Of a stretch of 64,000 nucleotides of DNA, positions 7,969 to 40,003 are shown in pieces. The notes under the pieces were generated by a model. The model was not told the DNA's origin, did no database searches, and saw nothing but the letters and a program-made list of their open reading frames with translations. Source of the DNA: Escherichia coli (lineage in GTDB: Bacteria; Pseudomonadota; Gammaproteobacteria; Enterobacterales; Enterobacteriaceae); NCBI RefSeq assembly GCF_041248615.1, contig NZ_CP158426.1; one strand, written 5' to 3'. Each line of letters opens with the position of its first letter. Position 1 is the first letter of the stretch. A program made the translations under genes and the position numbers.

Positions 7969-8120
7969 TAATGGCGCGCCGTGGGAAGCGCGGACATTAA
8001 TTAACCAACTGCACTGCGTGTCTTTCAGGATCAAAGGTTTTCGCGGTAGCGGGATGCGTCGTGTTGATGACGACCATGCCCGACAGTTGCAATTCGTGGC
8101 AAAAATGCAGGAATAAAACA

Positions 8121-10361
8121 ATGAACAAGAAGATTCATTCCCTAGCCTTGTTGGTCAATCTGGGGATTTATGGGGTAGCGCAGGCACAAGAGCCGACCGA
8201 TACTCCTGTTTCACATGACGATACCATTGTCGTTACCGCCGCCGAGCAGAACTTGCAGGCACCTGGCGTTTCGACCATCACCGCAGATGAAATCCGCAAA
8301 AACCCGGTTGCCCGCGATGTGTCGGAGATCATCCGTACCATGCCAGGCGTTAACCTGACCGGCAACTCCACCAGTGGTCAGCGTGGTAATAACCGCCAGA
8401 TTGATATTCGCGGCATGGGTCCGGAAAACACGCTGATTTTGATTGACGGCAAACCGGTAAGCAGCCGTAACTCGGTGCGTCAGGGCTGGCGTGGCGAGCG
8501 CGATACCCGTGGTGATACTTCCTGGGTGCCACCTGAAATGATTGAACGTATTGAAGTTCTGCGTGGTCCGGCAGCTGCGCGTTATGGCAACGGCGCGGCG
8601 GGCGGCGTGGTTAACATCATTACCAAAAAAGGCAGCGGTGAGTGGCACGGCTCCTGGGACGCTTATTTCAATGCGCCAGAACATAAAGAGGAAGGTGCCA
8701 CTAAACGCACCAACTTCAGCCTGACCGGTCCGCTGGGCGACGAATTCAGCTTCCGCTTGTATGGCAACCTCGACAAAACCCAGGCTGACGCGTGGGATAT
8801 CAACCAGGGCCATCAGTCCGCGCGTGCCGGAACGTATGCCACGACGTTACCAGCCGGGCGCGAAGGGGTGATCAATAAAGATATTAACGGCGTGGTGCGC
8901 TGGGACTTCGCACCATTACAATCGCTGGAACTGGAAGCAGGTTACAGCCGCCAGGGTAACCTGTATGCGGGCGATACCCAGAACACCAACTCTGACTCCT
9001 ATACCCGCTCGAAATATGGCGATGAAACCAACCGTCTGTATCGCCAGAACTACTCGCTGACCTGGAACGGCGGCTGGGATAACGGCGTGACCACCAGCAA
9101 CTGGGTGCAGTACGAACACACCCGTAACTCGCGTATTCCGGAAGGTCTGGCGGGCGGTACCGAAGGGAAATTTAACGAAAAAGCGACACAGGATTTCGTC
9201 GATATCGATCTCGATGACGTGATGCTGCACAGCGAAGTTAACCTGCCGATTGATTTCCTCGTTAACCAGACGCTGACGCTGGGTACGGAGTGGAATCAGC
9301 AGCGGATGAAGGATTTAAGTTCCAACACCCAGGCGCTCACTGGGACGAATACCGGCGGTGCTATTGATGGCGTGAGTGCCACCGACCGTAGCCCGTATTC
9401 AAAAGCAGAAATTTTCTCGCTATTTGCCGAAAACAATATGGAGCTGACTGACAGCACCATCGTAACGCCGGGGCTGCGTTTCGATCATCACAGCATTGTT
9501 GGCAATAACTGGAGTCCGGCTCTAAACATATCGCAAGGTTTAGGCGATGACTTCACGCTGAAAATGGGCATTGCCCGTGCTTATAAAGCGCCGAGTCTGT
9601 ACCAGACTAATCCAAACTACATTCTCTATAGTAAAGGTCAGGGCTGCTATGCCAGCGCGGGCGGCTGCTATCTGCAAGGTAATGATGACCTGAAAGCGGA
9701 AACCAGCATCAACAAAGAGATTGGTCTGGAGTTCAAACGCGACGGCTGGCTGGCGGGCGTCACCTGGTTCCGTAACGATTATCGCAATAAGATTGAAGCG
9801 GGCTATGTGGCTGTAGGGCAAAACGCAGTCGGCACCGATCTCTATCAGTGGGATAACGTACCGAAAGCGGTGGTTGAAGGTCTGGAAGGATCGTTAAACG
9901 TACCGGTTAGCGAAACGGTGATGTGGACCAATAACATCACTTATATGCTGAAGAGTGAAAACAAAACCACGGGCGACCGTTTGTCGATCATCCCGGAGTA
10001 TACGTTGAACTCAACGCTGAGCTGGCAGGCACGGGAAGATTTGTCGATGCAAACAACCTTCACCTGGTACGGCAAGCAGCAGCCGAAGAAGTACAACTAT
10101 AAAGGTCAGCCAGCGGTTGGACCGGAAACCAAAGAAATCAGCCCGTACAGCATTGTTGGCCTGAGCGCGACCTGGGATGTGACGAAGAATGTCAGTCTGA
10201 CCGGCGGCGTGGACAACCTGTTCGACAAACGTTTGTGGCGTGCGGGTAATGCCCAGACCACGGGCGATCTGGCAGGAGCCAACTATATCGCCGGTGCCGG
10301 GGCGTATACCTATAACGAGCCGGGACGTACGTGGTATATGAGCATTAATACTCACTTCTGA
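8121..10361 (+). CDS. fepA: TonB-dependent ferric enterobactin outer membrane receptor
   Basis: 746 aa from MNKKIHSLALLVNLGIYGVAQA signal peptide; TonB box DTIVVTA; C-terminal Phe; track ORF starts at an upstream in-frame GTG. Confidence 0.97.
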   Translation: MNKKIHSLALLVNLGIYGVAQAQEPTDTPVSHDDTIVVTAAEQNLQAPGVSTITADEIRKNPVARDVSEIIRTMPGVNLTGNSTSGQRGNNRQIDIRGMGPENTLILIDGKPVSSRNSVRQGWRGERDTRGDTSWVPPEMIERIEVLRGPAAARYGNGAAGGVVNIITKKGSGEWHGSWDAYFNAPEHKEEGATKRTNFSLTGPLGDEFSFRLYGNLDKTQADAWDINQGHQSARAGTYATTLPAGREGVINKDINGVVRWDFAPLQSLELEAGYSRQGNLYAGDTQNTNSDSYTRSKYGDETNRLYRQNYSLTWNGGWDNGVTTSNWVQYEHTRNSRIPEGLAGGTEGKFNEKATQDFVDIDLDDVMLHSEVNLPIDFLVNQTLTLGTEWNQQRMKDLSSNTQALTGTNTGGAIDGVSATDRSPYSKAEIFSLFAENNMELTDSTIVTPGLRFDHHSIVGNNWSPALNISQGLGDDFTLKMGIARAYKAPSLYQTNPNYILYSKGQGCYASAGGCYLQGNDDLKAETSINKEIGLEFKRDGWLAGVTWFRNDYRNKIEAGYVAVGQNAVGTDLYQWDNVPKAVVEGLEGSLNVPVSETVMWTNNITYMLKSENKTTGDRLSIIPEYTLNSTLSWQAREDLSMQTTFTWYGKQQPKKYNYKGQPAVGPETKEISPYSIVGLSATWDVTKNVSLTGGVDNLFDKRLWRAGNAQTTGDLAGANYIAGAGAYTYNEPGRTWYMSINTHF

Positions 10362-10400
10362 TGCTAACGTCAGATTGTTGACAAAGTGCGCGTAGTTCAT

Positions 10401-10499
10401 GCCGGATGCGGCGTGAACGCCTTATCCGGCCTACAAAAATCTTGCCAATTCAATATATTGCAGGACCACGTAGGCCTGATAAGCGTAGCGCATCAGGCA
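10401..10499. repeat. REP/BIME element: two inverted REP units (gccggatgcggcgtgaacgccttatccggcctac and gtaggcctgataagcgtagcgcatcaggca)
   Basis: Canonical enterobacterial REP palindromes in the fepA-entD intergenic region. Confidence 0.6.
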
Positions 10500-10535
10500 G
10501 TTTTGCGTTTGTCATCATTCTCTAATATGGTTGAC

Positions 10536-11156
10536 ATGAAAACTACGCATACCTCCCTCCCCTTTGTAGGACATACGCTGCATTTTGTTGAGTTTGATCC
10601 GGCGAGTTTTCGCGAGCAGGATTTACTCTGGCTGCCACACTACGCGCAACTGCAACACGCTGGACGTAAACGTAAAACAGAGCATTTAGCCGGACGGATC
10701 GCTGCAGTTTATGCGCTGCGGGAATATGGCTATAAATGTGTGCCCGCAATCGGCGAGCTACGCCAACCTGTGTGGCCTGCGGGGGTATACGGCAGCATTA
10801 GTCACTGTGGGACTACGGCATTAGCCGTGGTATCTCGTCAACCAATTGGCATTGATATCGAAGAGATTTTCTCTGTACAAACCGCAAGAGAATTGACAAA
10901 CAACATTATTACACCAGCAGAACACGAGCGACTCGCAGAATGCGGTTTAACCTTTTCTCTGGCGCTGACACTGGCATTTTCCGCCAAAGAGAGCGCATTT
11001 AAGGCATCGGAGAGACAAACTGATGCAGGATTTCTGGATTATCAGATAATTAGCTTGAATAAACAGCAGATCATCATTCGACTAGAGGATGAGCAGTTTG
11101 CTGTGCACTGGCAGATAAAAGAAAAGATAGTCATAACGCTGTGCCAACACGATTAA
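10536..11156 (+). CDS. entD: Enterobactin synthase phosphopantetheinyl transferase
   Basis: 206 aa from MKTTHTSLPF within the 256-aa track ORF; PPTase motifs GIDIEE and FSAKESAFK. Confidence 0.9.
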   Translation: MKTTHTSLPFVGHTLHFVEFDPASFREQDLLWLPHYAQLQHAGRKRKTEHLAGRIAAVYALREYGYKCVPAIGELRQPVWPAGVYGSISHCGTTALAVVSRQPIGIDIEEIFSVQTARELTNNIITPAEHERLAECGLTFSLALTLAFSAKESAFKASERQTDAGFLDYQIISLNKQQIIIRLEDEQFAVHWQIKEKIVITLCQHD

Positions 11157-11175
11157 TTGACAATACCCGGAGCGA

Positions 11176-11207
11176 TTCGCCCGCAGCCAATGCTGACTGC
11201 GGGCGAA
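11176..11207. terminator. Hairpin (ttcgcccgcag...ctgcgggcgaa) between convergent entD and hok; likely bidirectional terminator
   Basis: Inverted repeat read from sequence; a near-identical hairpin recurs at about 11676-11708 in the second hok copy. Confidence 0.4.
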
Positions 11208-11277
11208 AGTGTAAAGCAGGTGCCTTACTACTCTGACCTGACAACCGGATATGCGGGGATTACTCCCCGCACAACGG

Positions 11278-11430
11278 CTACTTCTTCGGTTCGTAAGCGA
11301 GAACAGCCTTAAACTCAATATTACGTTCCTTCACCGTAAACTCACACAGCGAGTCTCCGACCAGAAGCGTAAATCCCAGCACCGTTAAACACAGCACTAT
11401 GACTGCCACAAGGGCATATTTCGTCAGCAT
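11278..11430 (-). CDS. hokE: Hok-family small membrane toxin (type I toxin-antitoxin), copy 1
   Basis: 50 aa [50 protein letters not shown]; single TM helix plus conserved Hok C-terminus. Confidence 0.85.
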
Positions 11431-11575
11431 GTTTATATTGCCTCCATGCGAAGAAGGGACTACCATCCGAGTTGTTGAGGTTCGGAGTGGCAGCCCCAGG
11501 ATTGATAGAAATATCTCCTGGGGCTTCATCTTTCCAGACCTCAGAGTTAACCTGAAACCGGAAAGCTTCAGGCAC
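11342..11575 (-). CDS. mok-like overlapping reading frame of hok copy 1
   Basis: 77-aa ORF starting upstream of hok and ending inside it in a different frame, as in canonical hok/mok/sok loci. Confidence 0.4.
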
Positions 11576-11780
11576 CCGCTGTTATCTTACCCTTCCTTAG
11601 CAAAATAACTGTTTATTTATACAGCAAGTCCTGTTTCGGACTTCTGTTGGCAACACTCGTTATTGCTCGTAAAACGAAATCGCCCGCAGCCATCACTGAC
11701 CACGGGCGAAAGTGTAAAGCAGGTGCCTTACCACCCTGACCTGACAACCGGATATGCGGGGATTACTCCCCGCACAACGG

Positions 11781-11933
11781 CTACTTCTTCGGTTCGTAAG
11801 CGAGAACAGCCTTAAACTCAATATTACGTTCCTTCACCGTAAACTCACACAGCGAGTCTCCGACTAGAAGCGTAAATCCCAGTACCGTCAAACACAGCAC
11901 TATGACTGCCACAAGGGCATATTTCGTCAGCAT
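11781..11933 (-). CDS. hokE: Hok-family small membrane toxin, copy 2 (identical 50-aa protein; in this copy the upstream mok-like frame is fused in frame, track ORF 11781-12077)
   Basis: Same 50-aa Hok sequence; 98-aa extended ORF in track. Confidence 0.85.
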
Positions 11934-12364
11934 GTTTATATTGCCTCCATGCGAAGAAGGGACTACCATCCAAATTGTCTGGTTTGGAGTGGCAGCCCCA
12001 GGGTTGATAGAAATATCTCCTGGGGCTTCATCTTTCCAGACCTCAGAGTTAACCTGAAACCGGAAAGCTTCAGGCACCCGCCGTTATCTTACCCTTCTTC
12101 AGCAAAATAGCTGTTTATTTATACAGTGAGTCCTGTTTCGGACTTCTCACTCCTCATTTGATCAACTGAAGCTGAACCCGTTTTTTTCTGCATGCCTCAA
12201 TCGTCAAAATTCTTCGCCACCAGTCCGCACTGCCATAACTTGTCATATTGCAAAATGTAGCCAATTTGCTTCAGTCACCATCATCAAAAAAAGAAACATT
12301 CCAGAACTTCCGCATCTCGCCCAGTCGCTCCCACTTCTATACTGAATAGAAAACGCCAACATAA

Positions 12365-13492
<1,128 letters not shown>

Positions 13493-13557
13493 GCCGGGAA
13501 TTGCCTTACAGAAGAATATCCCTGACAATGGTGTTTTAACTTACATTTAACAATGTT

Positions 13558-13806
13558 ATGAAACACCCTTTAGAAACCTTGACCACCGCAGCAGGCATTT
13601 TGCTGATGGCTTTCCTTTCTTGCCTGCTGCTACCCGCCCCCGCACTGGGGCTGACGCTGGCACAAAAACTGGTGACCATGTTCCATCTGATGGATCTTAG
13701 CCAGCTTTACACTTTATTGTTTTGTCTGTGGTTTTTAGTGCTGGGCACTATTGAGTATTTTGTTCTGCGCTTTATCTGGCGACGCTGGTTCTCGCTGGCG
13801 GATTAA
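13558..13806 (+). CDS. ybdJ: Small inner membrane protein YbdJ
   Basis: 82 aa, two hydrophobic helices; synteny. Confidence 0.8.
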
Positions 13807-13870
13807 ACGTCGATTATCGCCGTACTTCGCGGCATACTTTGCTTATTCTCCTTCGCCTAAAGGAACGTTT

Positions 13871-14239
13871 ATGGATAAGCAATCACTGCACGAAACGGCG
13901 AAACGCCTGGCCCTTGAGTTACCCTTTGTCGAGCTTTGCTGGCCTTTTGGCCCGGAGTTCGATGTTTTTAAAATTGGCGGCAAGATTTTTATGCTGTCGT
14001 CGGAGCTGCGCGGCGTCCCCTTTATCAATCTGAAGTCCGATCCACAAAAATCCCTGTTAAATCAGCAAATATACCCGAGCATCAAGCCAGGGTATCACAT
14101 GAATAAAAAGCACTGGATTTCAGTGTATCCCGGCGAGGAAATCTCCGAAGCGTTACTTCGCGATCTGATCAACGATTCGTGGAATCTGGTGGTTGATGGT
14201 CTGGCTAAACGCGATCAAAAAAGAGTGCGTCCAGGCTAA
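13871..14239 (+). CDS. ybdF: Conserved protein YbdF
   Basis: 122 aa from [14 protein letters not shown] inside the 162-aa track ORF; synteny. Confidence 0.85.
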
Positions 14240-14332
14240 AGCGGAAATCTATAGCGCATTTTTCTCGCTTACCATTTCTCGTTGAACCTTGTAATCTGCT
14301 GGCACGCAAAATTACTTTCACATGGAGTCTTT

Positions 14333-14986
14333 ATGGATATCATTTCTGTCGCCTTAAAGCGTCATTCCACTAAGGCATTTGATGCCAGCAAAAAACTAAC
14401 CCCGGAACAGGCCGAGCAGATCAAAACTCTCCTGCAATACAGCCCATCCAGCACCAACTCCCAGCCGTGGCATTTTATTGTTGCCAGCACGGAAGAAGGT
14501 AAAGCGCGTGTTGCCAAATCCGCTGCCGGTAATTACGTGTTCAACGAGCGTAAAATGCTTGATGCCTCGCACGTTGTGGTGTTCTGTGCAAAAACCGCGA
14601 TGGACGATGCCTGGCTGAAGCTGGTTGTTGACCAGGAAGATGCCGATGGCCGCTTTGCCACGCCGGAAGCGAAAGCCGCGAACGATAAAGGTCGCAAGTT
14701 CTTCGCCGATATGCACCGTAAAGATCTGCATGATGATGCGCAGTGGATGGCAAAACAGGTTTATCTCAACGTCGGTAACTTCCTGCTCGGCGTGGCGGCT
14801 CTGGGTCTGGACGCGGTACCCATCGAAGGTTTTGACGCCGCCATCCTCGATGAAGAATTTGGTCTGAAAGAGAAAGGCTACACCAGTCTGGTGGTTGTTC
14901 CGGTAGGTCATCACAGCGTTGAAGATTTTAACGCTACGCTGCCGAAATCTCGTCTGCCGCAAAACATCACCTTAACCGAAGTGTAA
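14333..14986 (+). CDS. nfsB: Oxygen-insensitive NAD(P)H nitroreductase
   Basis: 217 aa from [17 protein letters not shown]; nitroreductase family. Confidence 0.95.
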
Positions 14987-15045
14987 TTCTCTCTTGCCGG
15001 GCATCTGCCCGGCTATTTCCCCTCAGATTCTCCTGATTTGCATAA

Positions 15046-16341
<1,296 letters not shown>

Positions 16342-27033: not shown

Positions 27034-28935
27034 ATGTCAACCGGATTACGTTTCACACTGGAAGTGGACGGCCTGCCGCCGGATGCTTTTGCGGTGGTTT
27101 CCTTTCATCTGAACCAGTCACTCTCTTCGCTCTTTTCCCTCGATCTCTCCCTGGTCAGCCAGCAGTTTCTCTCCCTTGAATTTGCGCAGGTGCTGGACAA
27201 AATGGCCTACCTGACGGTATGGCAGGGCGATGACGTACAGCGCCGGGTGAAAGGCGTGGTGACCTGGTTTGAACTCGGGGAGAACGACAAAAACCAGATG
27301 CTGTACAGCATGAAGGTGCACCCGCCGCTGTGGCGTGCCGGTCTGCGCCAGAACTTCCGTATCTTCCAGAACGAGGACATCAAAAGCATCCTCGGCACGA
27401 TGTTGCAGGAAAACGGGGTGACCGAATGGAGTCCGCTGTTCAGCGAGCCGCATCCTTCCCGTGAGTTTTGTGTCCAGTACGGTGAGACTGATTACGATTT
27501 CCTGTGCCGGATGGCGGCGGAGGAAGGCATCTTCTTTTATGAGGAGCATGCTTACAAAAGTACCGACCAGAGCCTGGTGCTGTGCGACACAGTCCGCCAT
27601 CTGCCCGAATCTTTTGAAATCCCATGGAACCCGAACACCCGTACCGAGGTGAGCACCCTCTGCATCAGCCAGTTCCGCTACAGCGCACAAATCCGCCCTT
27701 CTTCCGTGGTGACCAAAGACTACACCTTTAAACGCCCCGGCTGGGCCGGACGTTTTGAACAGGAAGGCCAGCACCAGGACTACCAGCGCACGCAGTATGA
27801 AGTGTATGACTACCCCGGACGTTTCAAGGGTGCCCACGGGCAGAACTTTGCCCGCTGGCAGATGGACGGCTGGCGAAACAATGCAGAAACCGCGCGGGGA
27901 ATGAGTCGCTCGCCGGAGATATGGCCGGGACGACGAATTGTGCTGACGGGGCATCCGCAGGCGAACCTGAACCGGGAATGGCAGGTGGTGGCAAGTGAAC
28001 TGCACGGCGAACAGCCACAGGCGGTGCCAGGACGGCAGGGAGCGGGGACGGCGCTGGAGAACCATTTTGCGGTGATCCCGGCAGACAGAACATGGCGACC
28101 ACAGCCGTTGCTGAAACCGCTGGTCGACGGCCCGCAGAGCGCTGTCGTGACAGGACCGGCAGGCGAGGAAATCTTCTGCGACGAACATGGTCGCGTGCGG
28201 GTGAAGTTCAACTGGGACCGCTATAACCCGTCAAACCAGGACAGTTCGTGCTGGATCCGTGTGGCACAGGCGTGGGCAGGCACCGGTTTTGGCCACCTGG
28301 CGATACCGCGTGTGGGTCAGGAGGTGATTGTAGACTTCCTCAACGGCGATCCGGACCAGCCGATCATTATGGGGCGCACCTACCACCAGGAAAACCGCAC
28401 CCCCGGCAGCCTGCCGGGAACAAAGACGCAGATGACCATCCGCTCCAAAACGTACATGGGCAGCGGATTTAATGAGCTGAAGTTTGATGATGCGACAGGG
28501 AGAGAACAGGTCTACATCCACGCGCAGAAGAACATGGATACCGAAGTGCTCAACGACCGTACCACCACCGTAAAACACGATCACCACGAAACCGTAAAAA
28601 ATGACCAGACGGTCACGATCCAGGAAGGTAACCGCCTTCTTACGGTGGAAAAAGGCCACAAGATCACCGGAGTACTGAAAGGGTCTTTATCTGAGGATGT
28701 CTTTCAGGACAGAGGCACGATTGCCGGTTCGGTGCATGTTGACGCTGTAAACAATGGTGGCGAAGGCGACGGTATACAGGCTTATACGGCGATTAAGGAA
28801 ATTTTGCTGGCCGTGGAGGAAAGCAAAATTGCGCTGACGCCGGATGGCATTCAGCTACAGGTCGGGGAATCGACGGTAATCAGGCTGTCGAAGGATGGCA
28901 TCACCATCGTGGGCGGTTCTGTTTTCATCAACTGA
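27034..28935 (+). CDS. vgrG: VgrG spike protein (type VI secretion; Rhs-associated Vgr)
   Basis: 633 aa, gp27/gp5-like VgrG sequence directly upstream of Eag-like and PAAR-Rhs genes. Confidence 0.9.
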   Translation: MSTGLRFTLEVDGLPPDAFAVVSFHLNQSLSSLFSLDLSLVSQQFLSLEFAQVLDKMAYLTVWQGDDVQRRVKGVVTWFELGENDKNQMLYSMKVHPPLWRAGLRQNFRIFQNEDIKSILGTMLQENGVTEWSPLFSEPHPSREFCVQYGETDYDFLCRMAAEEGIFFYEEHAYKSTDQSLVLCDTVRHLPESFEIPWNPNTRTEVSTLCISQFRYSAQIRPSSVVTKDYTFKRPGWAGRFEQEGQHQDYQRTQYEVYDYPGRFKGAHGQNFARWQMDGWRNNAETARGMSRSPEIWPGRRIVLTGHPQANLNREWQVVASELHGEQPQAVPGRQGAGTALENHFAVIPADRTWRPQPLLKPLVDGPQSAVVTGPAGEEIFCDEHGRVRVKFNWDRYNPSNQDSSCWIRVAQAWAGTGFGHLAIPRVGQEVIVDFLNGDPDQPIIMGRTYHQENRTPGSLPGTKTQMTIRSKTYMGSGFNELKFDDATGREQVYIHAQKNMDTEVLNDRTTTVKHDHHETVKNDQTVTIQEGNRLLTVEKGHKITGVLKGSLSEDVFQDRGTIAGSVHVDAVNNGGEGDGIQAYTAIKEILLAVEESKIALTPDGIQLQVGESTVIRLSKDGITIVGGSVFIN

Positions 28936-28962
28936 TTCACTCAGATTATCAGGGAGTATTTT

Positions 28963-29424
28963 ATGCAGTTCACTTTTAATGAAGGCCACATTCAACTGCC
29001 GTCTCAATGGCAGGATCAGTCAATGCAGGTCCTGGTGTCCACAGATAACAGTGGCATCAACCTGGTCATTACCCGCGAAGCCGTTCCACAGGGAACCCTG
29101 ACACCAGAGCTGTACCAGGAAACGCTGGCGCTGTACCAGGGCAAACTTGATGGGTACACCGAACATGCCTGCCGGGAAATCACTCTGGCAGAGGCCCCGG
29201 CCTGGCTGCTGGATTATTCCTGGAACGGTCCGGAAGATGAGGGGAATCAGGGGCGGATTAGCCAGATAGCCGTATTCCAGCGGCGTGGAGATACGCTGCT
29301 GACCTTCACTTTCAGCACCTCCTTATCCCTGAAGAACAGTCAAAAGACGATGCTGCTGGAGGTGATAAAGAGCTTCACCCCGTTGCCACCGGAGAATGAC
29401 ATCCAAAAGGACCAGCCGCGCTGA
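28963..29424 (+). CDS. DUF1795 (Eag-family) effector-associated chaperone
   Basis: 153 aa small protein immediately upstream of a prePAAR-Rhs effector; position and size typical of Eag chaperones. Confidence 0.7.
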   Translation: MQFTFNEGHIQLPSQWQDQSMQVLVSTDNSGINLVITREAVPQGTLTPELYQETLALYQGKLDGYTEHACREITLAEAPAWLLDYSWNGPEDEGNQGRISQIAVFQRRGDTLLTFTFSTSLSLKNSQKTMLLEVIKSFTPLPPENDIQKDQPR

Positions 29425-29443
29425 CATAAACGAGGGATAACAC

Positions 29444-32400
29444 ATGAGTGAAGGACCAGGCGGGCCACAGGGAGCGACCGCAGGCGGTACGCTGGCAATG
29501 CGAATGCTGTCACAGCAGGCGATGGTCGCCAGCCAGATGAAACGGGCAGCCAACGACAAAGCCATTGCACAGATGCTGGCATCAAAAAAGTCCGGCCCCC
29601 CCGCCGCCAGGCTGGGCGATGAAATTCAGCACAAGAGTTTTTTGGGGGCGCTGGCAGGGGCCGTGCTGGGGGCGATAGTGACCATCGCAGAAGGTTGCCT
29701 GATTATGGCCGCCTGTGCCACCGGCCCTTATGCGCTGGTTCTGGTGCCTGCGCTGATGTATGCCAGCTATAAGGCGAGTGATTATGTGGAGGAGAAACAG
29801 AACCAGCTTGAATCATGGATAAACAGCTTTTGTGACACGGACGGCGCCATCAATACCGGTTCTGAAAATGTAAACATTAACGGAAAGCCCGCTGCCAGGG
29901 CCGCCGTCACCCTTCCCCCTCCTCCCCCACCTGGAGCAATACCTGAAATCCCACAGGGGGAACCCTCATGGGGTGATATTGCCACTGACCTGCTTGAATC
30001 GGCAGCGGAAAAAGCAGTACCACTGGCGAAGGCCTGGGGGAACGCTGTTATCACCCTGACGGACAGCAATGCCGGTTTTATGGATCGCGTCAGCGCCGGC
30101 GCATCGCTTCTGTTTCCCGCCGGTCCGGTATTAATGGAGTTTGCCACCATGGTGGGCGGGCGTGGCGAAATCAAAAAAGACGTGGATTTCCCGGAAGCCG
30201 GTGAGGACACGGCGCTCTGCGACAAGGAGAACAAACCGCCGAGGATAGCCCAGGGCAGCAGCAACGTCTTTATCAACAATCAGCCTGCTGCACGCAAGGG
30301 GGACAAACTGGAGTGCAGTGCGGCAATCGTGGAAGGTTCGCCGGACGTCTTTATTGGGGGTGAGCAGGTCACCTATCTGGATATCCAGCCGGAGTTCCCG
30401 CCGTGGCAGAGAATGATCCTGGGGGGAATAACGATAGCCAGCTATCTTCTGCCGCCAGCGGGACTGCTGGGAAAACTGAAGAATCTGGCGAGACTCGGCA
30501 AACTGGGAAACCTGCTGGGGAAAAGCGGGAAGCTGCTGGGGGCAAAGCTCGGCGCGTTGCTGGGGAAAACAGGTAAGTCGTTAAAAAGTATTGCCAATAA
30601 AGTCATCAGATGGGTAACAGATCCTGTCGATCCGGTAACCGGCGCATACTGCGACGAACGTACCGACTTTACGCTGGGCCAGACACTCCCCCTCTCCTTC
30701 ACCCGTTTCCACAGTTCTGTACTGCCACTGCATGGCCTGACGGGCGTGGGCTGGAGCGACTCCTGGAGCGAATACGCCTGGGTGCGTGAACAGGGAAACC
30801 GGGTGGATATCATCAGCCAGGGAACCACGCTGAGATTTGCCTTCGACGGTGACAGTGATACGGCGGTTAACCCGTATCACGCCCAGTACATTCTGCGCCG
30901 CCGCGATGATTACCTGGAGCTGTTCGACAGGGATGCACTGAGCAGCCGCTTCTTTTATGACGCCTTTCCGGGAATGCGTCTGCGCCACCCGGTGACTGAC
31001 GATACCAGCGATGACCGTCTGGCACACAGCCCCGCAGACCGGATGTACATGCTGGGCGGGATGAGCGACACCGCCAGCAACCGCATCACGTTTGAGCGCG
31101 ACAGCCAGTACCGGATCACAGGTGTCAGTCACACTGACGGGATCCGGCTTAAACTGACGTACCACGCCAGCGGCTACCTGAAAGCCATTCACCGCACGGA
31201 TAACGGCATACAGACGCTGGCGACCTACGAACAGGATGCGCGGGGGCGGCTGACAGAAGCGGATGCGCGGCTGGACTACCACCTGTTTTATGAGTACGAC
31301 GCTGCGGACCGGATCATCCGCTGGTCCGATAACGACCAGACGTGGAGCCGTTTCACCTACGATGAACAGGGCCGGTGCGTGAATGTCACCGGGGCGGAGG
31401 GCTATTACAACGCCACGCTGGACTATGGTGACGGCTGCACCACCGTGACGGACGGCAAGGGCATTCACCGTTATTACTATGATCCTGACGGCAATATTCT
31501 GCGGGAAGCAGCGCCGGACGGCAGCACCACCATGTATGAATGGGATGAATTCCATCACCTGCTGGCCCGTCACTCCCCTGCCGGGCGGGTGGAGAAATTT
31601 GAATACAACGCCGCACACGGTCAGTTAAGCCGTTACACGGCGGCAGACGGCGCGGAGTGGCAGTACCGCTATGATGAGCGCGGCCTGCTCAGCAACATCA
31701 CCGACCCTGCCGGGCAGACGTGGACACAGCAGTGTGATGAACGCGGCCTGCCGGTAAGTCTGGTGTCGCCACAGGGCGAAGAGACCCGGCTGGCATACAC
31801 CGCTCAGGGGCTGCTGTCGGGAATATTCCGCCAGGATGAACGGCGTCTGGGCATAGAGTACGACCACCACAACCGGCCGGAAACACTCACCGACGTGATG
31901 GGCCGCGAACACCACACCGAATACAGTGGTCACGACCTGCCGGTGAAGATGCGCGGCCCCGGCGGTCAGTCAGTGCGCTTACAGTGGCAGCAGCACCATA
32001 AACTGAGTGGCCTTGAGCGCACTGGCACCGGCGCGGAAGGATTCCGCTACGACCGCCACGGCAACCTGCTGGCCTGGACGGACGGTAACGGTGTTGTCTG
32101 GACAATGGAATACGGCCCGTTTGATTTGCCGGTGGCGCGAACGGACGGTGAAGGCCACCGCTGGCAGTACCGCTACGATAAAGACACGCTGCAACTGACA
32201 GAAGTCATTAACCCGCAGGGTGAGTCATATCTTTATGTTCTGGATAACTGCGGCCGGGTGACGGAAGAGCATGACTGGGGCGGCGTGGTCTGGCGTTACC
32301 GCTATGACGCCGATGGCCTGTGTACCGCCAGGGTCAACGGCCTGGAGGAAACCATCCTCTACAGCCGGGACGCCGCAGGCCGCCTGGCAGAAGTCATCAC

Positions 32401-34303
32401 GCCGGAAGGCAAAACGCAGTATGCCTATGACAAATCCGGCAGGCTGACGGGTATCTTCAGCCCGGACGGCACATCACAGCGCACCGGCTATGACGAACGC
32501 GGGCGGGTGAATGTCACCACTCAGGGCCGACGGGCCATTGAATACCACTACCCCGACGAACACACCGTCATCCGCTGTATCCTGCCACCGGAAGATGAAC
32601 GCGACAGACACCCCGGTGAATCCCTGCTGAAAACCACGTACCGCTACAACGCCGCCGGAGAACTGACGGAGGTCATTCTGCCGGGGGATGAGACGCTGAC
32701 GTTCAGCCGTGATGAGGCAGGACGTGAAGTGCTCCGGCACAGTAACCGGGGTTTTGCCTGTGAACAGGGCTGGAATGCAGCCGGTCAGCCTGTCAGTCAG
32801 CGCGCCGGACTTTTCCCGGCAGAAGCCACATGGGGCGGGCTGCTCCCCTCACGGGTACGGGAGTACCGTTACGACAGCGCGGGTAATGTGTCAGGCGTCA
32901 CCAGCCGGGAAGATTACGGACGGGAAACACGGCGGGAATACCGGCTGGACCGGAACGGCCAGGTCACGGCGGTGACAGCCTCAGGCACCGGGCTGGGCTA
33001 TGGCGAAGGCGATGAGTCCTATGGCTATGACAGCTGCGGCTACCTGAAGGCGCAGTCTGCGGGCTGGCACCGGATAAGTGAAGAGACTGACCAGTATGCC
33101 GGAGGCCACCGGCTGAAACAGGCCGGAAACACGCAGTATGACTATGACGCCGCAGGCCGGATGGTCAGCCGCACCAGACACCGTGACGGCTATCGCCCGG
33201 AAACAGAGCGGTTCCGGTGGGACAGCCGTGACCAGCTGACCGGGTATTGCAGCGCACAGGGTGAGCAGTGGGAATACCGCCACGACGCCAGCGGCAGACG
33301 AACAGAGAAACGCTGCGACCGGAAGAAAATCCGCATCACGTACCTGTGGGACGGCGACAGTATTGCGGAAATCCGGGAATACCGCGATGATAAACTGTAC
33401 AGCGTACGGCACCTGGTGTTTAACGGCTTTGAGCTGATAAGCCAGCAGTTCAGCCGGGTACGGCAGGCGCATCCGTCGGTGGCCCCGCAGTGGGTGACAC
33501 GGACGAATCATGCGGTGAGCGACCTGACGGGCCGTCCGCTGATGCTCTTTAACAGTGAAGGTAAAACCGTCTGGCGACCGGGACAGACCAGCCTGTGGGG
33601 GCTGGCACTCAGCCTGCCCGCGGACACCGGCTACCCGGACCCGCGCGGGGAGCTGGACGCGGAAGCCGCCCCCGGCCTGCTGTATGCGGGACAGTGGCAG
33701 GATGCGGAATCGGGGCTGTGCTATAACCGGTTCCGGTACTACGAGCCGGAAACCGGGATGTACCTGGTGAGTGATCCGCTGGGGTTGCAGGGAGGGGAAC
33801 AGACTTACCGGTATGTGCCTAATCCGTGTGGGTATGTTGATCCGCTGGGGCTGGCAAAAACTTCTGTTCCCGTATCAATAGTAGAACCAAAAAAAATCAC
33901 TGGTAACTTTAAAACAATTCGAGAAAAATTAAGGCTTGCCAGGAATGGTGATGTTTCTGCACAAGCCGAAATTGCATACGCAAAATATATGCGTAGTTTG
34001 GGAAAGGATGTGCATTTCAATACACCTCCGAATCGCTCAGTATCAATGGCAGATTTTACAATTGATGGAATCCAGGTTGATACAAAATTATTGAGTGGTA
34101 TAGGCGGAAATGCTGCAAAAAATGTTAACAAGGGAGTTGGCCAGGTGGGAGATAATGGTATCGTCCTGGTAATTAGAAATTCTAATTCCAAAAATACACT
34201 TGAGGAATTTCATGAATTCTTTGGAAACTTCAAACCTAATAATTCAACAGTTCGAGTTGAAGTGATTGATCAATCCGTTTTAGAACCTTTTTGGAGATTT
34301 TAA
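29444..34303 (+). CDS. rhs: prePAAR/PAAR-Rhs polymorphic toxin (full length) with variable C-terminal toxin domain CT1
   Basis: 1619 aa; prePAAR motif AARLGDEIQH (29603-29632), two TM helices, PAAR-like region, many YD repeats, demarcation PxxxxDPxGL (PCGYVDPLGL), then AT-rich 149-aa CT. Confidence 0.95.
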   Translation: MSEGPGGPQGATAGGTLAMRMLSQQAMVASQMKRAANDKAIAQMLASKKSGPPAARLGDEIQHKSFLGALAGAVLGAIVTIAEGCLIMAACATGPYALVLVPALMYASYKASDYVEEKQNQLESWINSFCDTDGAINTGSENVNINGKPAARAAVTLPPPPPPGAIPEIPQGEPSWGDIATDLLESAAEKAVPLAKAWGNAVITLTDSNAGFMDRVSAGASLLFPAGPVLMEFATMVGGRGEIKKDVDFPEAGEDTALCDKENKPPRIAQGSSNVFINNQPAARKGDKLECSAAIVEGSPDVFIGGEQVTYLDIQPEFPPWQRMILGGITIASYLLPPAGLLGKLKNLARLGKLGNLLGKSGKLLGAKLGALLGKTGKSLKSIANKVIRWVTDPVDPVTGAYCDERTDFTLGQTLPLSFTRFHSSVLPLHGLTGVGWSDSWSEYAWVREQGNRVDIISQGTTLRFAFDGDSDTAVNPYHAQYILRRRDDYLELFDRDALSSRFFYDAFPGMRLRHPVTDDTSDDRLAHSPADRMYMLGGMSDTASNRITFERDSQYRITGVSHTDGIRLKLTYHASGYLKAIHRTDNGIQTLATYEQDARGRLTEADARLDYHLFYEYDAADRIIRWSDNDQTWSRFTYDEQGRCVNVTGAEGYYNATLDYGDGCTTVTDGKGIHRYYYDPDGNILREAAPDGSTTMYEWDEFHHLLARHSPAGRVEKFEYNAAHGQLSRYTAADGAEWQYRYDERGLLSNITDPAGQTWTQQCDERGLPVSLVSPQGEETRLAYTAQGLLSGIFRQDERRLGIEYDHHNRPETLTDVMGREHHTEYSGHDLPVKMRGPGGQSVRLQWQQHHKLSGLERTGTGAEGFRYDRHGNLLAWTDGNGVVWTMEYGPFDLPVARTDGEGHRWQYRYDKDTLQLTEVINPQGESYLYVLDNCGRVTEEHDWGGVVWRYRYDADGLCTARVNGLEETILYSRDAAGRLAEVITPEGKTQYAYDKSGRLTGIFSPDGTSQRTGYDERGRVNVTTQGRRAIEYHYPDEHTVIRCILPPEDERDRHPGESLLKTTYRYNAAGELTEVILPGDETLTFSRDEAGREVLRHSNRGFACEQGWNAAGQPVSQRAGLFPAEATWGGLLPSRVREYRYDSAGNVSGVTSREDYGRETRREYRLDRNGQVTAVTASGTGLGYGEGDESYGYDSCGYLKAQSAGWHRISEETDQYAGGHRLKQAGNTQYDYDAAGRMVSRTRHRDGYRPETERFRWDSRDQLTGYCSAQGEQWEYRHDASGRRTEKRCDRKKIRITYLWDGDSIAEIREYRDDKLYSVRHLVFNGFELISQQFSRVRQAHPSVAPQWVTRTNHAVSDLTGRPLMLFNSEGKTVWRPGQTSLWGLALSLPADTGYPDPRGELDAEAAPGLLYAGQWQDAESGLCYNRFRYYEPETGMYLVSDPLGLQGGEQTYRYVPNPCGYVDPLGLAKTSVPVSIVEPKKITGNFKTIREKLRLARNGDVSAQAEIAYAKYMRSLGKDVHFNTPPNRSVSMADFTIDGIQVDTKLLSGIGGNAAKNVNKGVGQVGDNGIVLVIRNSNSKNTLEEFHEFFGNFKPNNSTVRVEVIDQSVLEPFWRF

Positions 34304-34307
34304 AAAT

Positions 34308-34784
34308 ATGATCACCAAATCAAGTATACTCATAGAGTATAAAGATAAAAGTAAACTAACCGAAAGTATTTATAAGTTTGTAAATGCTCTAGATATTGAC
34401 TTTTCGATATTAAAATATGACTACTTTGATGTAAATGAGTATAAAAAAAATATTACTTATGACACATCTTTTATTGACAAAGATGCAGAATATATTGAAT
34501 TATTAGCGAAGATTGATTTTTCTTATGAAGTTGATTTCGGCACATCAACAACATCGATTGAAAGCAAGTATCTTCCATCTCTAACTGATTTCATCGCTCA
34601 ATCACTATCACAACAATTAAATTGTAACATAATAACCAGCTTTAAACCATTAAGTGGAGATGAGTTTTGCCCAATAACATATTTTTCAAAAGGTAAAGAA
34701 GTTATCAATTTTACGACATTTAATTCAAATTGTTGGGATGGGGTATACTGGGTAAAAAAAAGGAGGCAAACAAATATCCGCTAA
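34308..34784 (+). CDS. Putative cognate immunity protein for Rhs CT1
   Basis: 158 aa, AT-rich ORF 5 nt after the rhs stop, in the usual immunity position. Confidence 0.6.
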   Translation: MITKSSILIEYKDKSKLTESIYKFVNALDIDFSILKYDYFDVNEYKKNITYDTSFIDKDAEYIELLAKIDFSYEVDFGTSTTSIESKYLPSLTDFIAQSLSQQLNCNIITSFKPLSGDEFCPITYFSKGKEVINFTTFNSNCWDGVYWVKKRRQTNIR

Positions 34785-34902
34785 CGTAGTTTTTCAATAG
34801 CTACACCATGTCACGTAACATGATGCCTGGATATTAACAGAAAGACAGAAGTGGACTCAGCGGTGAGATGAACGCAGCCTGAGTCTGAAGTACGACCTGC
34901 CG

Positions 34903-37233
34903 GTGAAGATGCGCGGCCCCGGCGGTCAGTCAGTGCGGTTGCAGTGGCAGCAGCACCATAAACTGAGTGGCCTTGAGCGCACTGGCACCGGCGCGGAAGG
35001 GTTCAGCTATGACCGCCACGGCAACCTGCTGGCCTGGACGGACGGCAATGGTGTTGTCTGGACAATGGAGTACGGCCCGTTCGATTTGCCGGTGGCGCGA
35101 ACGGACGGTGAAGGCCACCGCTGGCAGTACCGCTATGATAAAGACACGCTGCAACTGACAGAAGTCATTAACCCGCAGGGTGAGTCATATCTTTATGTTC
35201 TGGATAACTGCGGCCGGGTGACGGAAGAGCATGACTGGGGCGGCGTGGTCTGGCGTTACCGCTATGACGCCGATGGCCTGTGTACCGCCAGGGTCAACGG
35301 CCTGGAGGAAACCATCCTCTACAGCCGGGACGACGCAGGCCGCCTGGCAGAAGTCATCACGCCGGAAGGCAAAACGCAGTATGCGTATGACAAATCCGGC
35401 AGGCTGACGGGTATCTTCAGCCCGGACGGCACATCACAGCGCACCGGCTATGACGAACGCGGGCGGGTGAATGTCACCACTCAGGGCCGACGGGCCATTG
35501 AATACCACTACCCCGATGAACACACCGTCATCCGCTGTATCCTGCCACCGGAAGATGAACGCGACAGACACCCCGGTGAATCCCTGCTGAAAACCACGTA
35601 CCGCTACAACGCAGCCGGAGAACTGGCAGAGGTCATCCTGCCGGAGGATGAGACGCTGACGTTCAGCCGTGATGAGGCAGGACGTGAAGTGCTCCGGCAC
35701 AGTAACCGGGGTTTTGCCTGTGAGCAGGGCTGGAATGCAGCCGGTCAGCTTACCAGCCAGCGCGCCGGACTTTTCCCGGCAGAAGCCACATGGGGCGGGC
35801 TGCTCCCCTCACGGGTACGGGAGTACCGTTACGACAGCGCGGGTAATGTGTCAGGCGTCACCAGCCGGGAAGATTACGGACGGGAAACACGGCGGGAATA
35901 CCGGCTGGACCGGAACGGCCAGGTCACGGCGGTGACAGCCTCAGGCACCGGGCTGGGCTATGGCGAAGGCGATGAGTCCTATGGCTATGACAGCTGCGGC
36001 TACCTGAAGGCGCAGTCTGCGGGCTGGCACCGGATAAGTGAAGAGACTGACCAGTATGCCGGAGGCCACCGGCTGAAACAGGCCGGAAACACGCAGTATG
36101 ACTATGACGCCGCAGGCCGGATGGTCAGCCGCACCAGACACCGTGACGGCTATCGCCCGGAAACAGAGCGGTTCCGGTGGGACAGCCGTGACCAGCTGAC
36201 CGGGTATTGCAGCGCACAGGGTGAGCAGTGGGAATACCGCCACGACGCCAGCGGCAGACGAACAGAGAAACGCTGCGACCGGAAGAAAATCCGCATCACG
36301 TACCTGTGGGACGGCGACAGTATTGCGGAAATCCGGGAATACCGCGATGATAAACTGTACAGCGTACGGCACCTGGTGTTTAACGGCTTTGAGCTGATAA
36401 GCCAGCAGTTCAGCCGGGTACGGCAGGCGCATCCGTCGGTGGCCCCGCAGTGGGTGACACGGACGAATCATGCGGTGAGCGACCTGACGGGCCGTCCGCT
36501 GATGCTCTTTAACAGTGAAGGTAAAACCGTCTGGCGACCGGGACAGACCAGCCTGTGGGGGCTGGCACTCAGCCTGCCCGCGGACACCGGCTACCCGGAC
36601 CCGCGCGGGGAACTGGACGCGGAAGCCGACCCCGGCCTGCTGTATGCAGGACAGTGGCAGGATGCGGAATCCGGGCTGTGCTATAACCGGTTCCGGTATT
36701 ACGAGCCGGAAACAGGGATGTACCTGGTGAGTGATCCGCTGGGGTTGCTGGGGGGTGAGCAGACTTACCGGTATGTGCCGAATCCGTGTGGGTATGTTGA
36801 TCCTTTGGGATTAGCAACATGTCCCATAATCAGACAACGGGTGCTGGCTAACCTTGAAGCCAGTCGGGCAGCAAGGGCTGCATCTAATTTTGGTAAGAAA
36901 AATATCTATGATTTTATCAAGGCAACTCAATCTGCTATCCCTGGCACCTCTATCCCAAAATCTTTTGAGATTATAACTGCTAATGGTACTTTCTGGGTAC
37001 ACCCAAATGCTACAAAACATATGGCTGAATATTTGACTCGGAACGGTCTCTCACATTCAACTTCTGTAGAGAGCCAAATAATGTTAACAAGTTTTCACGA
37101 AGCTGTAAGTTTGGCTAGTGCTCAAGGTATAAAGTATGAAGAAATGATGAATGTTGGCGGCTGGGAACTAGTATTTAGTCAAGCTAAATCTGACTCGGCT
37201 TTATCAGTTATTAAACATGCTCTTTATAAATGA
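34903..37233 (+). CDS. rhs: Orphan 5'-truncated rhs fragment (core repeat plus distinct C-terminal toxin CT2)
   Basis: 776-aa ORF with GTG start; 34892-36813 nearly identical to main rhs 31932-33853; PxxxxDPxGL followed by unrelated 139-aa CT. Confidence 0.85.
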   Translation: MKMRGPGGQSVRLQWQQHHKLSGLERTGTGAEGFSYDRHGNLLAWTDGNGVVWTMEYGPFDLPVARTDGEGHRWQYRYDKDTLQLTEVINPQGESYLYVLDNCGRVTEEHDWGGVVWRYRYDADGLCTARVNGLEETILYSRDDAGRLAEVITPEGKTQYAYDKSGRLTGIFSPDGTSQRTGYDERGRVNVTTQGRRAIEYHYPDEHTVIRCILPPEDERDRHPGESLLKTTYRYNAAGELAEVILPEDETLTFSRDEAGREVLRHSNRGFACEQGWNAAGQLTSQRAGLFPAEATWGGLLPSRVREYRYDSAGNVSGVTSREDYGRETRREYRLDRNGQVTAVTASGTGLGYGEGDESYGYDSCGYLKAQSAGWHRISEETDQYAGGHRLKQAGNTQYDYDAAGRMVSRTRHRDGYRPETERFRWDSRDQLTGYCSAQGEQWEYRHDASGRRTEKRCDRKKIRITYLWDGDSIAEIREYRDDKLYSVRHLVFNGFELISQQFSRVRQAHPSVAPQWVTRTNHAVSDLTGRPLMLFNSEGKTVWRPGQTSLWGLALSLPADTGYPDPRGELDAEADPGLLYAGQWQDAESGLCYNRFRYYEPETGMYLVSDPLGLLGGEQTYRYVPNPCGYVDPLGLATCPIIRQRVLANLEASRAARAASNFGKKNIYDFIKATQSAIPGTSIPKSFEIITANGTFWVHPNATKHMAEYLTRNGLSHSTSVESQIMLTSFHEAVSLASAQGIKYEEMMNVGGWELVFSQAKSDSALSVIKHALYK

Positions 37234-37763
37234 CGATTATGCTTACATTAGAAAATGAAACAAACTACAAAGATGTTGTTGTTAATATAGATGAATTTGT
37301 ACCTTTTGATATAACTTTTGGAAAGGGGAGCGAACAGTGTTTGTACTGGAGAGGCGGCAATGGTAAAAGTTCTTTGGTTGAAGTTGGGTTAAATATGTAC
37401 AGCGGAGAAGTAAGTAACATCACACTAGCAAATATCGATTCAGGTGAAATTAACATTACAGATGAGATGTTAGCCAACAACCTTCCTGAAATACAAGGGT
37501 CTGTTATATTTCAGACAAGCGAGTGGCTTAATAAAGACATTTCCGAATACTCAAACAGATTTATTGATGATTTTGATTGCAATATCAAGTTAATAATTGG
37601 TAGTAATTACATTAAATTATTATTTAAAAAAGCAACAAATCCCATTTGTTATATCATTAATAGGAATATAAGATTTGGTTTTTCTTTGAGTAGGGAACTT
37701 TCGACATTGGAAATATTAGACCTCAATCAAGAAAAATTAGATATTCTAAAGTTATTTAAATAG
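37230..37763 (+). CDS. Putative cognate immunity protein for orphan CT2
   Basis: 177 aa AT-rich ORF whose ATG overlaps the rhs-CT2 stop (ATGA). Confidence 0.6.
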   Translation: MTIMLTLENETNYKDVVVNIDEFVPFDITFGKGSEQCLYWRGGNGKSSLVEVGLNMYSGEVSNITLANIDSGEINITDEMLANNLPEIQGSVIFQTSEWLNKDISEYSNRFIDDFDCNIKLIIGSNYIKLLFKKATNPICYIINRNIRFGFSLSRELSTLEILDLNQEKLDILKLFK

Positions 37764-38242
37764 TTTTAGTGTTTGAAACTTACCGAGAGATGATAGCTAT
37801 GAATGAATACAAAAACATCCATCTTGGAGGAAACAATGGAATGTTAATCCATTAAAAAACATACTTCAATATCTTTAGTGAAGAAAGAGTTGTATGAAAG
37901 AAATATATCTTATGTGAGCGACATGATGCATGCTAATTATATTATTGGCCGGAAATTTTATGATGATAGCAAAAAGGAGGGGTTATTTCTGTAAGAATGG
38001 ATATACCCGCAGGGTTTGAACCAGACATTTATTTGTTGAAGTCTAAGATCCAAATGGAAGCATTTATATCCCTCAGATATTATGCGTTGACGGGTTGATA
38101 AAGATACTTTTAGAGGGTTAATAAATGGAGAACGTATAATAAATCTCTTAAACAAACTATAACCTGTACTAATGAAAAAAATGGGAATAGATAAGTTAAT
38201 AGCCTATTCTAAAAATGGTAAAGTGGTTTTACTTCCAAAATA

Positions 38243-38686
38243 ATGGAGTTTAGTATGAAAATCGAAGCTAATTCCCTTACTCATCCCTATGACTACAACG
38301 CCTCACTGAACAATTATTTACATTATTTTGAGAATTTCTCTCGTAATGACTGGAATAAAGATTCATGTGGAGGATATTTTACTTTTAGAGATGATGACAG
38401 AGAGTGTGTTTTGTTTTTTGTGAATTATGGTGATAATTTTTCATTGCGCTATGATTGTACACAAAGTTCTGATGGAATAGTGTCATGCTGGTATAGTAAC
38501 CATGAAGATGATAAAATGAATATCATCGTCGATGCTGATACAGAACAATTTATCCCTTTAGGTTCTTGCTTACCTCCTGATATTACTTTATCAGTAATAA
38601 AAGATTTTTTCAAAAATCCTTTAGAGAAATCAAAAAAAGTAAAATGGATGAATGCAGATGACATTGACTGGTCATCTGTGTATTAA
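38243..38686 (+). CDS. Hypothetical protein, possible orphan immunity protein
   Basis: 147 aa AT-rich ORF inside the Rhs island with no adjacent toxin; no recognised motif. Confidence 0.4.
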   Translation: MEFSMKIEANSLTHPYDYNASLNNYLHYFENFSRNDWNKDSCGGYFTFRDDDRECVLFFVNYGDNFSLRYDCTQSSDGIVSCWYSNHEDDKMNIIVDADTEQFIPLGSCLPPDITLSVIKDFFKNPLEKSKKVKWMNADDIDWSSVY

Positions 38687-38911
38687 AGTTGGATTGGATA
38701 ATTATCTGTTTCAAAAATCATTAAATTTAGAACCTATCTGTTCAACAGAGCTGCCTTGAACAGCAGGTTCTTTTATGATGTCCAGGAGCGAATATGCCTG
38801 TGATGTCTGGCACTCAGCATCTGACTGACCTGGACTACTGATCCTACTCACACAGGGAGCTAGACCTGGAAGCAACCTACTGTAAGCAGTGCAGTAGCAG
38901 CCCACCTCACA

Positions 38912-38950
38912 TCAGTCCTTGCAAGGTGTGGGCCTTTGTGATCTTGCTCT
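38912..38950. mobile_element. Degenerate remnant resembling the right terminus of an H-repeat/ISAs1-family element
   Basis: About 31 of 40 nt identical to the right end of the complete H-repeat copy at 44492-44531. Confidence 0.3.
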
Positions 38951-39297
38951 GTATTGCTGAGATCCTCAGGAAGGACTCGAAATTTAATCAGGAAGGCCGT
39001 TGCTAAAAATCAAAAAATAAATTCAAGAGCAATTTCTAAAACTTTTGAATCTACTGTATCGGATGAGGTTTTCACTCCTTTCCAAAAGGTGAGTTTTCAA
39101 GCATTCAAGTTTCTGTTATGACCAAAACTTCACCATTTAACACTAATCCGAGTATTATGTTACCATGAAGAAAAAAGATATTAGATTTGCAATATCCATT
39201 AACTCCAACTCAAGTAAGATAGAATTAATGGAAAAATTAAAAACATAATCCCAGGGCTTATTGAAATAACTCCCAGTGCATTAAGAGAAGAAAAAAC

Positions 39298-39513
39298 ATG
39301 GTAGTTATTGAAGATAATGATCTTTATGACCCTATAAAAGCAGAGGGAGTTGATGGATGGATGTATTATAAATTCATATTATCCATATTCCCATTAAAGG
39401 GAGTAGACACAACATTAGAATATCAACGGGAATTATCTTTTCTTTTCTTAAAGAAATTAAAAGATGCGGGTCTGTTAGGTGAACTTATATGCGAGGATGA
39501 TTTTCATGACTGA
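39298..39513 (+). CDS. Hypothetical small protein (71 aa), possible immunity-gene remnant
   Basis: ORF only; AT-rich; within Rhs island. Confidence 0.25.
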   Translation: MVVIEDNDLYDPIKAEGVDGWMYYKFILSIFPLKGVDTTLEYQRELSFLFLKKLKDAGLLGELICEDDFHD

Positions 39514-39577
39514 TGACCTCTACATATATCCTCAGTTCGTGGCTGGTATTACATGATCTGACAGGGAAAGATCGTAG

Positions 39578-39873: not shown

Positions 39874-39960
39874 AGGGAAAGATCACGTAACGCTGCTTTT
39901 TTGTACTAAATAATTCGCACTAAATGTTCAATAATTGAGATATTCCTTATTACCTAAATA
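39874..39960. mobile_element. Left-terminus remnant (about 85 bp) of an H-repeat/ISAs1-family element
   Basis: Matches the first ~90 bp of the complete H-repeat at 43242-43335 (cagggaaagatca...ttgtactaaataattcgca...ttgagatattcct). Confidence 0.55.
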
Positions 39961-40003
39961 CAGTTCCACCAAGATTACCTAAACCCAAATGAGGTAAAAG
40001 ATA

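Follow-up and report, generated by a model that had tools for sequence, protein, structure and literature searches.

An IS186-free tandem hokE/sokE locus between entD and ybdK in Escherichia coli

The DNA analyzed here (the window) is a stretch of 64,000 nucleotides of Escherichia coli, from contig NZ_CP158426.1 of the assembly GCF_041248615.1. It presents the gene order fes, fepA, entD, two hokE genes on the minus strand, ybdK, ybdJ, ybdF, and nfsB (Table 1). The entD gene is convergent with hok copy 1. Its stop codon ends at position 11156, and the stop codon of hok copy 1 (minus strand) occupies 11278-11280. Therefore, the intergenic interval is exactly 11157-11277, that is, 121 bp. The initial annotation of this stretch had estimated about 120 bp and had spoken of hok loci in the plural. 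Indeed, there are two repeat units, at 11177-11645 and 11680-12147, which are 95-96% identical and have a spacing of 503 bp. Four complete E. coli genomes (KE55, OW967178, LT599825, and GMF065) match the region with 100% identity. In these four, PGAP already annotates two hokE genes with the same protein, WP_000956465.1. On the other side of entD, the fepA-entD intergenic region (10362-10535) contains the REP-like palindromic units gccggatgcggcgtgaacgccttatccggcctac and aggcctgataagcgtagcgcatcaggc.

Elsewhere in the window, a vgrG/RHS-repeat toxin island is located at 27034-40226, between cusS and nfrB according to the KE55 annotation. It contains an ISAs1 transposase as well as orphan fragments of RHS and PAAR. 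In K-12, cusS and nfrB are adjacent. A tRNA-Arg gene (47501-47577) is placed directly between envY and fimZ (46694-48452). In K-12, the DLP12 prophage, with ompT and appY, is found at this tRNA. This prophage appears to be absent from the window.

Table 1. Features of the entD-hokE-ybdK region, in window coordinates.
Feature	Coordinates	Strand	Evidence or remark
fepA	8121-10361	+	
entD, phosphopantetheinyl transferase	10536..11156	+	Pfam 4PPT_N and ACPS; PGAP annotation of identical KE55 sequence
3' UTR of hok mRNA copy 1 (entD-hok interval)	11157..11277	-	Fold; consensus hok mRNA structure
Full-length hok mRNA copy 1	11172..11577	-	5' end inferred from Rfam RF01794 model start
Terminal stem-loop of hok mRNA copy 1	11178..11206	-	13-bp GC-rich stem, no U-tract
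fbi element AGGCACCU, copy 1	11218..11225	-	Predicted pairing with mRNA 5' end
Empty IS186 target, hairpin GCGGGGAGUAAUCCCCGC	11253..11270	-	K-12 junction alignment; blastn
hokE copy 1 CDS, 50 aa plus stop	11278..11430	-	Pfam HOK_GEF PF01848; PGAP hokE WP_000956465.1
Candidate mok copy 1, in-frame 62-codon ORF (12 extra residues + Hok)	11278..11466	-	
Sok antisense RNA copy 1	11474..11534	+	Mapped from K-12 sokE annotation
Unique 34-bp spacer between hok units	11646..11679	.	Also in Escherichia sp. MOD1-EC7003, 97% identity
Full-length hok mRNA copy 2	11672..12079	-	Rfam RF01794; fold
Terminal hairpin, copy 2	11680-11709	-	
fbi element, copy 2	11721-11728	-	
IS186 target, copy 2	11756-11773	-	
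hokE copy 2 CDS	11781-11933	-	PF01848
Candidate mok copy 2, in-frame 62-codon ORF	to 11969	-	
Sok antisense RNA copy 2	11977..12036	+	Mapped from K-12 sokE
ybdK, carboxylate-amine ligase, right-hand flank	12374..13492	+	Pfam GCS2; annotation

The Hok ORFs of both copies match PF01848 with 34 bits (cut-off 22, E 2e-8). They encode identical proteins, and the coding sequences differ by three synonymous changes. We aligned 16 hok units from six Escherichia lineages. The mean column identity is 96%, and the ORFs are intact in all of them. The Tyr46 codon TAC lies in a UACG context (minus strand CTTACGAA, 11292-11299 and 11795-11802), which is invariant in the 16 units. An A-to-I editing by TadA, which changes Tyr to Cys, has been reported for hokB, and the same is stated of hokC, hokD, and hokE (bioRxiv 10.1101/2025.08.07.668861).

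An in-frame ORF of 62 codons is a candidate for the mok equivalent. Its ATG is 12 codons upstream of hok, and the start codon and frame are invariant in the 16 sequences. We saw no clear Shine-Dalgarno sequence for this candidate. As mok, we rejected an ORF that begins further upstream (83 codons in copy 1, 98 in copy 2), given that frame-shifting indels occur at alignment columns 63 and 99 in 8 of the 16 units. The Sok regions fold into a hairpin followed by a U-rich tail (z -4.4 for copy 1 and -4.5 for copy 2). A consensus scan of positions 10900-12500 gave no sigma-70-like promoter at threshold. Therefore, the hok and Sok promoters are placed by homology only. By eye, a candidate Sok promoter reads TTGCCT-N17-TACCAT, with 8 of 12 matches, and is invariant in the 16 units. 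Antisense to the hok leader and Sok, PGAP calls a frameshifted "hypothetical protein" at 11902-12169 (+), and there is also the ORF at 11399-11608 (+). In SF-468, the hypothetical protein is annotated as intact, with 89 aa. It is probably a spurious ORF, lying over structured RNA.

The leader of each copy matches the Rfam model RF01794 (sok) over its full length, at 11422-11577 with 81.9 bits in copy 1 and at 11925-12079 with 81.7 bits in copy 2 (gathering score 59). From such end-to-end matches, the mRNAs would start at about 11577 and 12079. We folded the hok mRNAs from the inferred 5' end to just beyond the terminal hairpin and expressed the energies as z against shuffles. The values are -174.9 kcal/mol (z -7.25) for copy 1 and -174.6 kcal/mol (z -6.85) for copy 2. 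In both copies, the 5'-terminal tac element GGGUGCCU pairs with fbi near the 3' end, in the MFE or the centroid structure. The RNAalifold consensus of the 16 units recovers this pairing (1-8 with 354-361), and it is invariant or G-U in every unit. The single change is from G-C to G-U, hence this in silico prediction has no covariation support. The predicted 5'-3' closure corresponds to the one known from plasmid R1 hok. Likewise, alignment columns 148-156, in the region of the hok start codon, are predicted to pair with columns 342-350. Compensatory base-pair changes are present in the Sok-target (sokT) hairpin and in the terminal hairpin.

The entD-hok interval is the 3' UTR of hok copy 1, including the fbi element, and not a neutral spacer with a terminator. 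On the hok strand and folded alone, it takes the form of two strong hairpins (-62.7 kcal/mol, z -8.08). The terminal one, taken as an inverted repeat, spans 11176-11207 with 14-nt arms that are 93% complementary. The initial annotation had described a terminator hairpin in the interval. The hairpin is real, but a T-run is found on neither strand and the terminator scan gave no flag at this place. It is better called the 3' stem-loop of the hok mRNA. The equivalent hairpin of copy 2 (minus strand) has a U-rich tail and is the only one flagged as terminator-like. Past the terminal hairpin, the flank differs in SCU-387 and MOD1-EC7003, which have GAAACCAT instead of GAATCG.

The same annotation had claimed that K-12 carries an IS186 copy between hok and entD, that this copy is missing here, and that the hok loci are structurally uninterrupted. 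We compared the window with K-12 to locate the element, and these claims are all confirmed. The annotation of MG1655 gives ybdK-sokE-hokE-IS186B(608007-609351, insL2)-entD-fepA, where hokE/sokE are b4415/b4835. With IS186B of K-12 as the blastn query, there is no match to IS186 anywhere in the 64-kb window. Positions 8000-11267 of the window align to K-12 612615-609348, and positions 11759-15500 to K-12 608010-604257. Hok copy 1 (11256-11645) aligns equally well to K-12 608010-607621. The overlap of the two K-12 alignments in the window is 12 nt, and it corresponds to the target-site duplication of IS186B. So, annotation and alignment put the element exactly at this junction, contrary to the alignment result that the initial annotation had named as its refutation. 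Both copies of the window keep every recognizable hok/sok element.

In K-12, IS186B is flanked on both sides by the 12-bp duplication GGGAGTAATCCC. The hok strand reads ...GTGCG[GGGAGTAATCCC]ATAAGCGC...IS186...GCGCTTAT[GGGAGTAATCCC]CGCATATCC... in that strain. The window has a single GGGAGTAATCCC, at 11256-11267, and its hok strand across the empty junction is ...GTGCGGGGAGTAATCCCCGCATATCC... It follows that the window presents an unoccupied target and K-12 a derived insertion. On the hok strand, the target hairpin is GCGGGG-AGUAAU-CCCCGC (GCGGGG-N6-CCCCGC). The motif GGGGATTACTCCCC (GGGG-N6-CCCC) occurs once per hok copy, at 11255 and 11758. The target consensus of IS186, put forward by SaiSree and colleagues in 2001, is reportedly G>=4 N3-6 C>=4. 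The GC hairpin of the hok 3' UTR fits this preferred target. A duplication of 12 bp is also described for IS186 at the lon promoter (PMC3861542).

To count the architectures, we used 5,426 complete E. coli genomes and short junction-specific queries, with at least 80% of the query covered at one place. A broad megablast did not distinguish the architectures, since it merges pieces that are not colinear or that lie up to 1.6 kb from each other. The empty entD-hok junction is present in 2,899 genomes (53%), IS186 at hokE in the K-12 orientation in 1,718 (32%), and IS186 at the hokE site in the opposite orientation in 285 (5%); these counts are approximate, given the coverage rule and a biased collection, rich in K-12 derivatives and clinical clones. 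The three classes are mutually exclusive. Summing both orientations, IS186 occupies the 12-bp site of hokE in about 37% of the complete genomes. The inter-copy junction, which marks the tandem pair, is found in about 2,484 genomes (46%) and overlaps the other three classes.

The remaining genomes (about 10%) include cases with inserted genes (SCU-387), with the 3' half of hok lost (AST215), or with extra IS elements (H1827/12). In genomes such as SCU-387, entD and the hok pair are separated by genes for two SDR oxidoreductases and for an ABC permease. What AST215 retains beside entD is the promoter and leader of hok, the Sok region, and only the beginning of the hok ORF, with no complete toxin gene.

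In strain MDR_56, the order is hokE-IS186-hokE-IS186-entD, with an IS after each of both copies. The two orientations, this double insertion, and the case of hokC in K-12 indicate that the hairpin of the hok 3' UTR is a repeatedly hit hot spot of IS186. We might go further and see in this conserved GC hairpin a recurrent landing pad, where insertion, and possibly precise excision, would act as a natural and perhaps reversible off-switch for hok. This reading is a speculation that we consider unlikely.

We also scanned other species of the genus, with one genome per species and a 27-nt leader motif. In five lineages (E. albertii, E. whittamii, SCPM-O-B-8794, MOD1-EC7003, and E1V33), hokE adjoins ybdK without IS186. 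The gene on the opposite side is entD in four of these five, and MOD1-EC7003 has another sequence there. A single hokE is present in E. albertii, Escherichia sp. E1V33, K-12, and SF-468. The tandem pair, with a spacing of about 503 bp, is found in E. whittamii, Escherichia sp. MOD1-EC7003, and "E. coli" SCPM-O-B-8794. As it is common to several lineages, the tandem pair is an old polymorphism.

The identity between the window and E. albertii is 94% for the hok unit, compared with 84% for entD and 91% for fepA. This conservation above the flanking genes argues for purifying selection on the RNA. The variation among the 16 units is clustered in the Sok-target hairpin, where it affects 12 of 30 columns (alignment columns 88-117; window 11466-11490 and 11969-11992). 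The K-12 unit, once the IS is removed, has 9 differences from copy 2 (in 402 columns) and 16 from copy 1. We also considered, with less confidence, whether divergence in the Sok-target hairpin partly insulates the two tandem copies from each other. Over the first 24 nt, the cognate duplexes of Sok with the hok leader have energies of -55 and -54 kcal/mol, and the cross pairs -41 and -44 kcal/mol. The cross pairs are still strong, so an orthogonality of Sok between copies is unsupported.

We consider it very likely that the window contains the ancestral, IS186-free hokE/sokE type I locus, in its common tandem form between entD and ybdK, and that the 121 bp are the entD-proximal 3' UTR. In K-12, IS186B inserted in the first hairpin of this 3' UTR, which is followed on the minus strand by fbi and the terminal stem-loop, and duplicated the 12-bp target. 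The insertion separates fbi, the stretch predicted to pair with the region of the hok start codon, and the 3' stem-loop from the hok ORF and the rest of the mRNA. This detachment fits the published view that IS elements, point mutation, or rearrangement have inactivated the hok loci of K-12 (PMC2654758, citing Pedersen & Gerdes 1999).

In the uninterrupted locus, the tac/fbi pairing would close the full-length hok mRNA in an inert form. By analogy with R1, each locus would produce a stable, folded, and translationally silent mRNA. Slow trimming at the 3' end would remove the fbi element and let the mRNA refold. The refolded mRNA would then have one of two fates, namely destruction after the short-lived Sok has bound it, or translation into the membrane toxin. 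As both copies have all the recognizable hok/sok elements, they are plausibly expression-competent, judging by their sequence. The initial annotation had likewise held that they may be functional.

Other explanations can be considered for the empty site. The absence of IS186 could be an assembly artefact, a collapsed repeat, considering that short-read assemblies often collapse IS elements. However, the 2,164-bp region is 100% identical in four independent complete genomes and 99.7% identical in 18 more among those listed, all of them IS-free. Moreover, the target at the junction is clean and unduplicated, and no fragment of an IS end is present there. We give this explanation practically no weight. 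An ancestor with IS186 at the hokE hairpin could also have lost it by precise excision, which would leave exactly the junction sequence of the window. Such an excision has been observed at the lon promoter hot spot, where the insertion is described as very unstable (PMC3861542). Nevertheless, the five other Escherichia lineages have no IS186 at hokE, and the empty junction is the majority state. Likewise, no IS is present in the 22 genomes with an identity of 99% or more over the query, all of which cover it fully. A secondary loss adds a step that nothing in the sequence requires, and it seems highly improbable.

The loci could also be intact in sequence and functionally inert, as relics kept by drift or hitch-hiking. 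In earlier work, the chromosomal loci hokA, hokB, and hokC gave no post-segregational killing (bioRxiv 10.1101/2025.08.07.668861). For IS-free hokA and hokC, rifampicin-induced killing was not seen either (same preprint, citing Pedersen & Gerdes 1999). Therefore, being uninterrupted is no guarantee of an R1-like activity. In the same direction, the disruption by IS186 is tolerated in about 37% of genomes, and at least one strain (AST215) lives without the 3' half of hok. Conversely, the hok unit is conserved across Escherichia species above flanking genes of an essential pathway. All the sampled units have an intact ORF and invariant long-range pairings, and compensatory changes are found in the sokT and terminal hairpins. 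Furthermore, the HokE coding sequence of MG1655 is toxic when over-expressed (bioRxiv 10.1101/2025.08.07.668861). On balance, we regard inert relics as unlikely, with an appreciable chance nonetheless, and retain the reading of an ancestral and complete tandem locus.

The IS-free state is the majority and the ancestral one, so K-12 is the unusual strain. In substance, this finding was known before (Pedersen & Gerdes 1999), and it is correct but ordinary. Multiple copies have also been noted before. The genome paper of E. coli W mentions several hokE copies versus one in K-12 (PMC3032704), and 10% of Hok genes are in islets of 2-6 copies (bioRxiv 10.1101/2025.08.07.668861). The scale and recurrence of IS186 insertion at the hairpin and the age of the tandem pair are mildly new. 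In practice, the hokE of K-12 makes a poor reference. Chromosomal Hok in persistence, phage exclusion, and stress responses should be studied in natural isolates such as this one, whose loci are complete and often paired. Annotation should treat the entD-hok interval as functional RNA sequence (3' UTR and fbi) and not as a spacer. The counts at the hot spot may interest researchers of IS target choice.

One parallel for the insertion site is the lon promoter, where IS186 inserts site-specifically, in either orientation, at one GC-rich site (PMC3045373; PMC3861542). The hokE hairpin resembles it in the repeated insertion, the two orientations, and the 12-bp duplication. The lon site is a promoter, where an insertion is clearly selectable, whereas at hokE the effect is one that we infer. 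A second parallel is hokC (gef)/sokC of K-12. There, IS186A is inserted in the homologous hairpin of the 3' UTR, GCGGGGAGUGAUCCCCGC, with the 12-bp duplication GGGAGTGATCCC. This gene is a different paralogue at another chromosomal site, next to dnaJ.

The hok/sok (parB) system of plasmid R1 is the reference type I toxin-antitoxin. The window shares with it the PF01848 toxin, the RF01794 leader, an mRNA of about 400 nt with the predicted tac/fbi closure, and a putative antisense RNA of about 60 nt, similar to Sok, that would end in a terminator hairpin. It differs in being chromosomal and tandemly duplicated, and the post-segregational killing of R1 is not expected of a chromosomal locus. The R1 mok is an out-of-frame ORF overlapping hok. 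The candidate mok of the window is an in-frame N-terminal extension, like the annotated mokC of K-12.

Finally, hokE/sokE of K-12 is the same locus. It sits at the same chromosomal place, between entD and ybdK, and has its leader, Sok region, and hok ORF in common with the window. The sole amino acid difference in the Hok protein is valine at position 8 in the window and alanine in K-12. K-12 has one copy, with IS186B at 18-22 nt past the stop codon, whereas the window has two copies and no IS.
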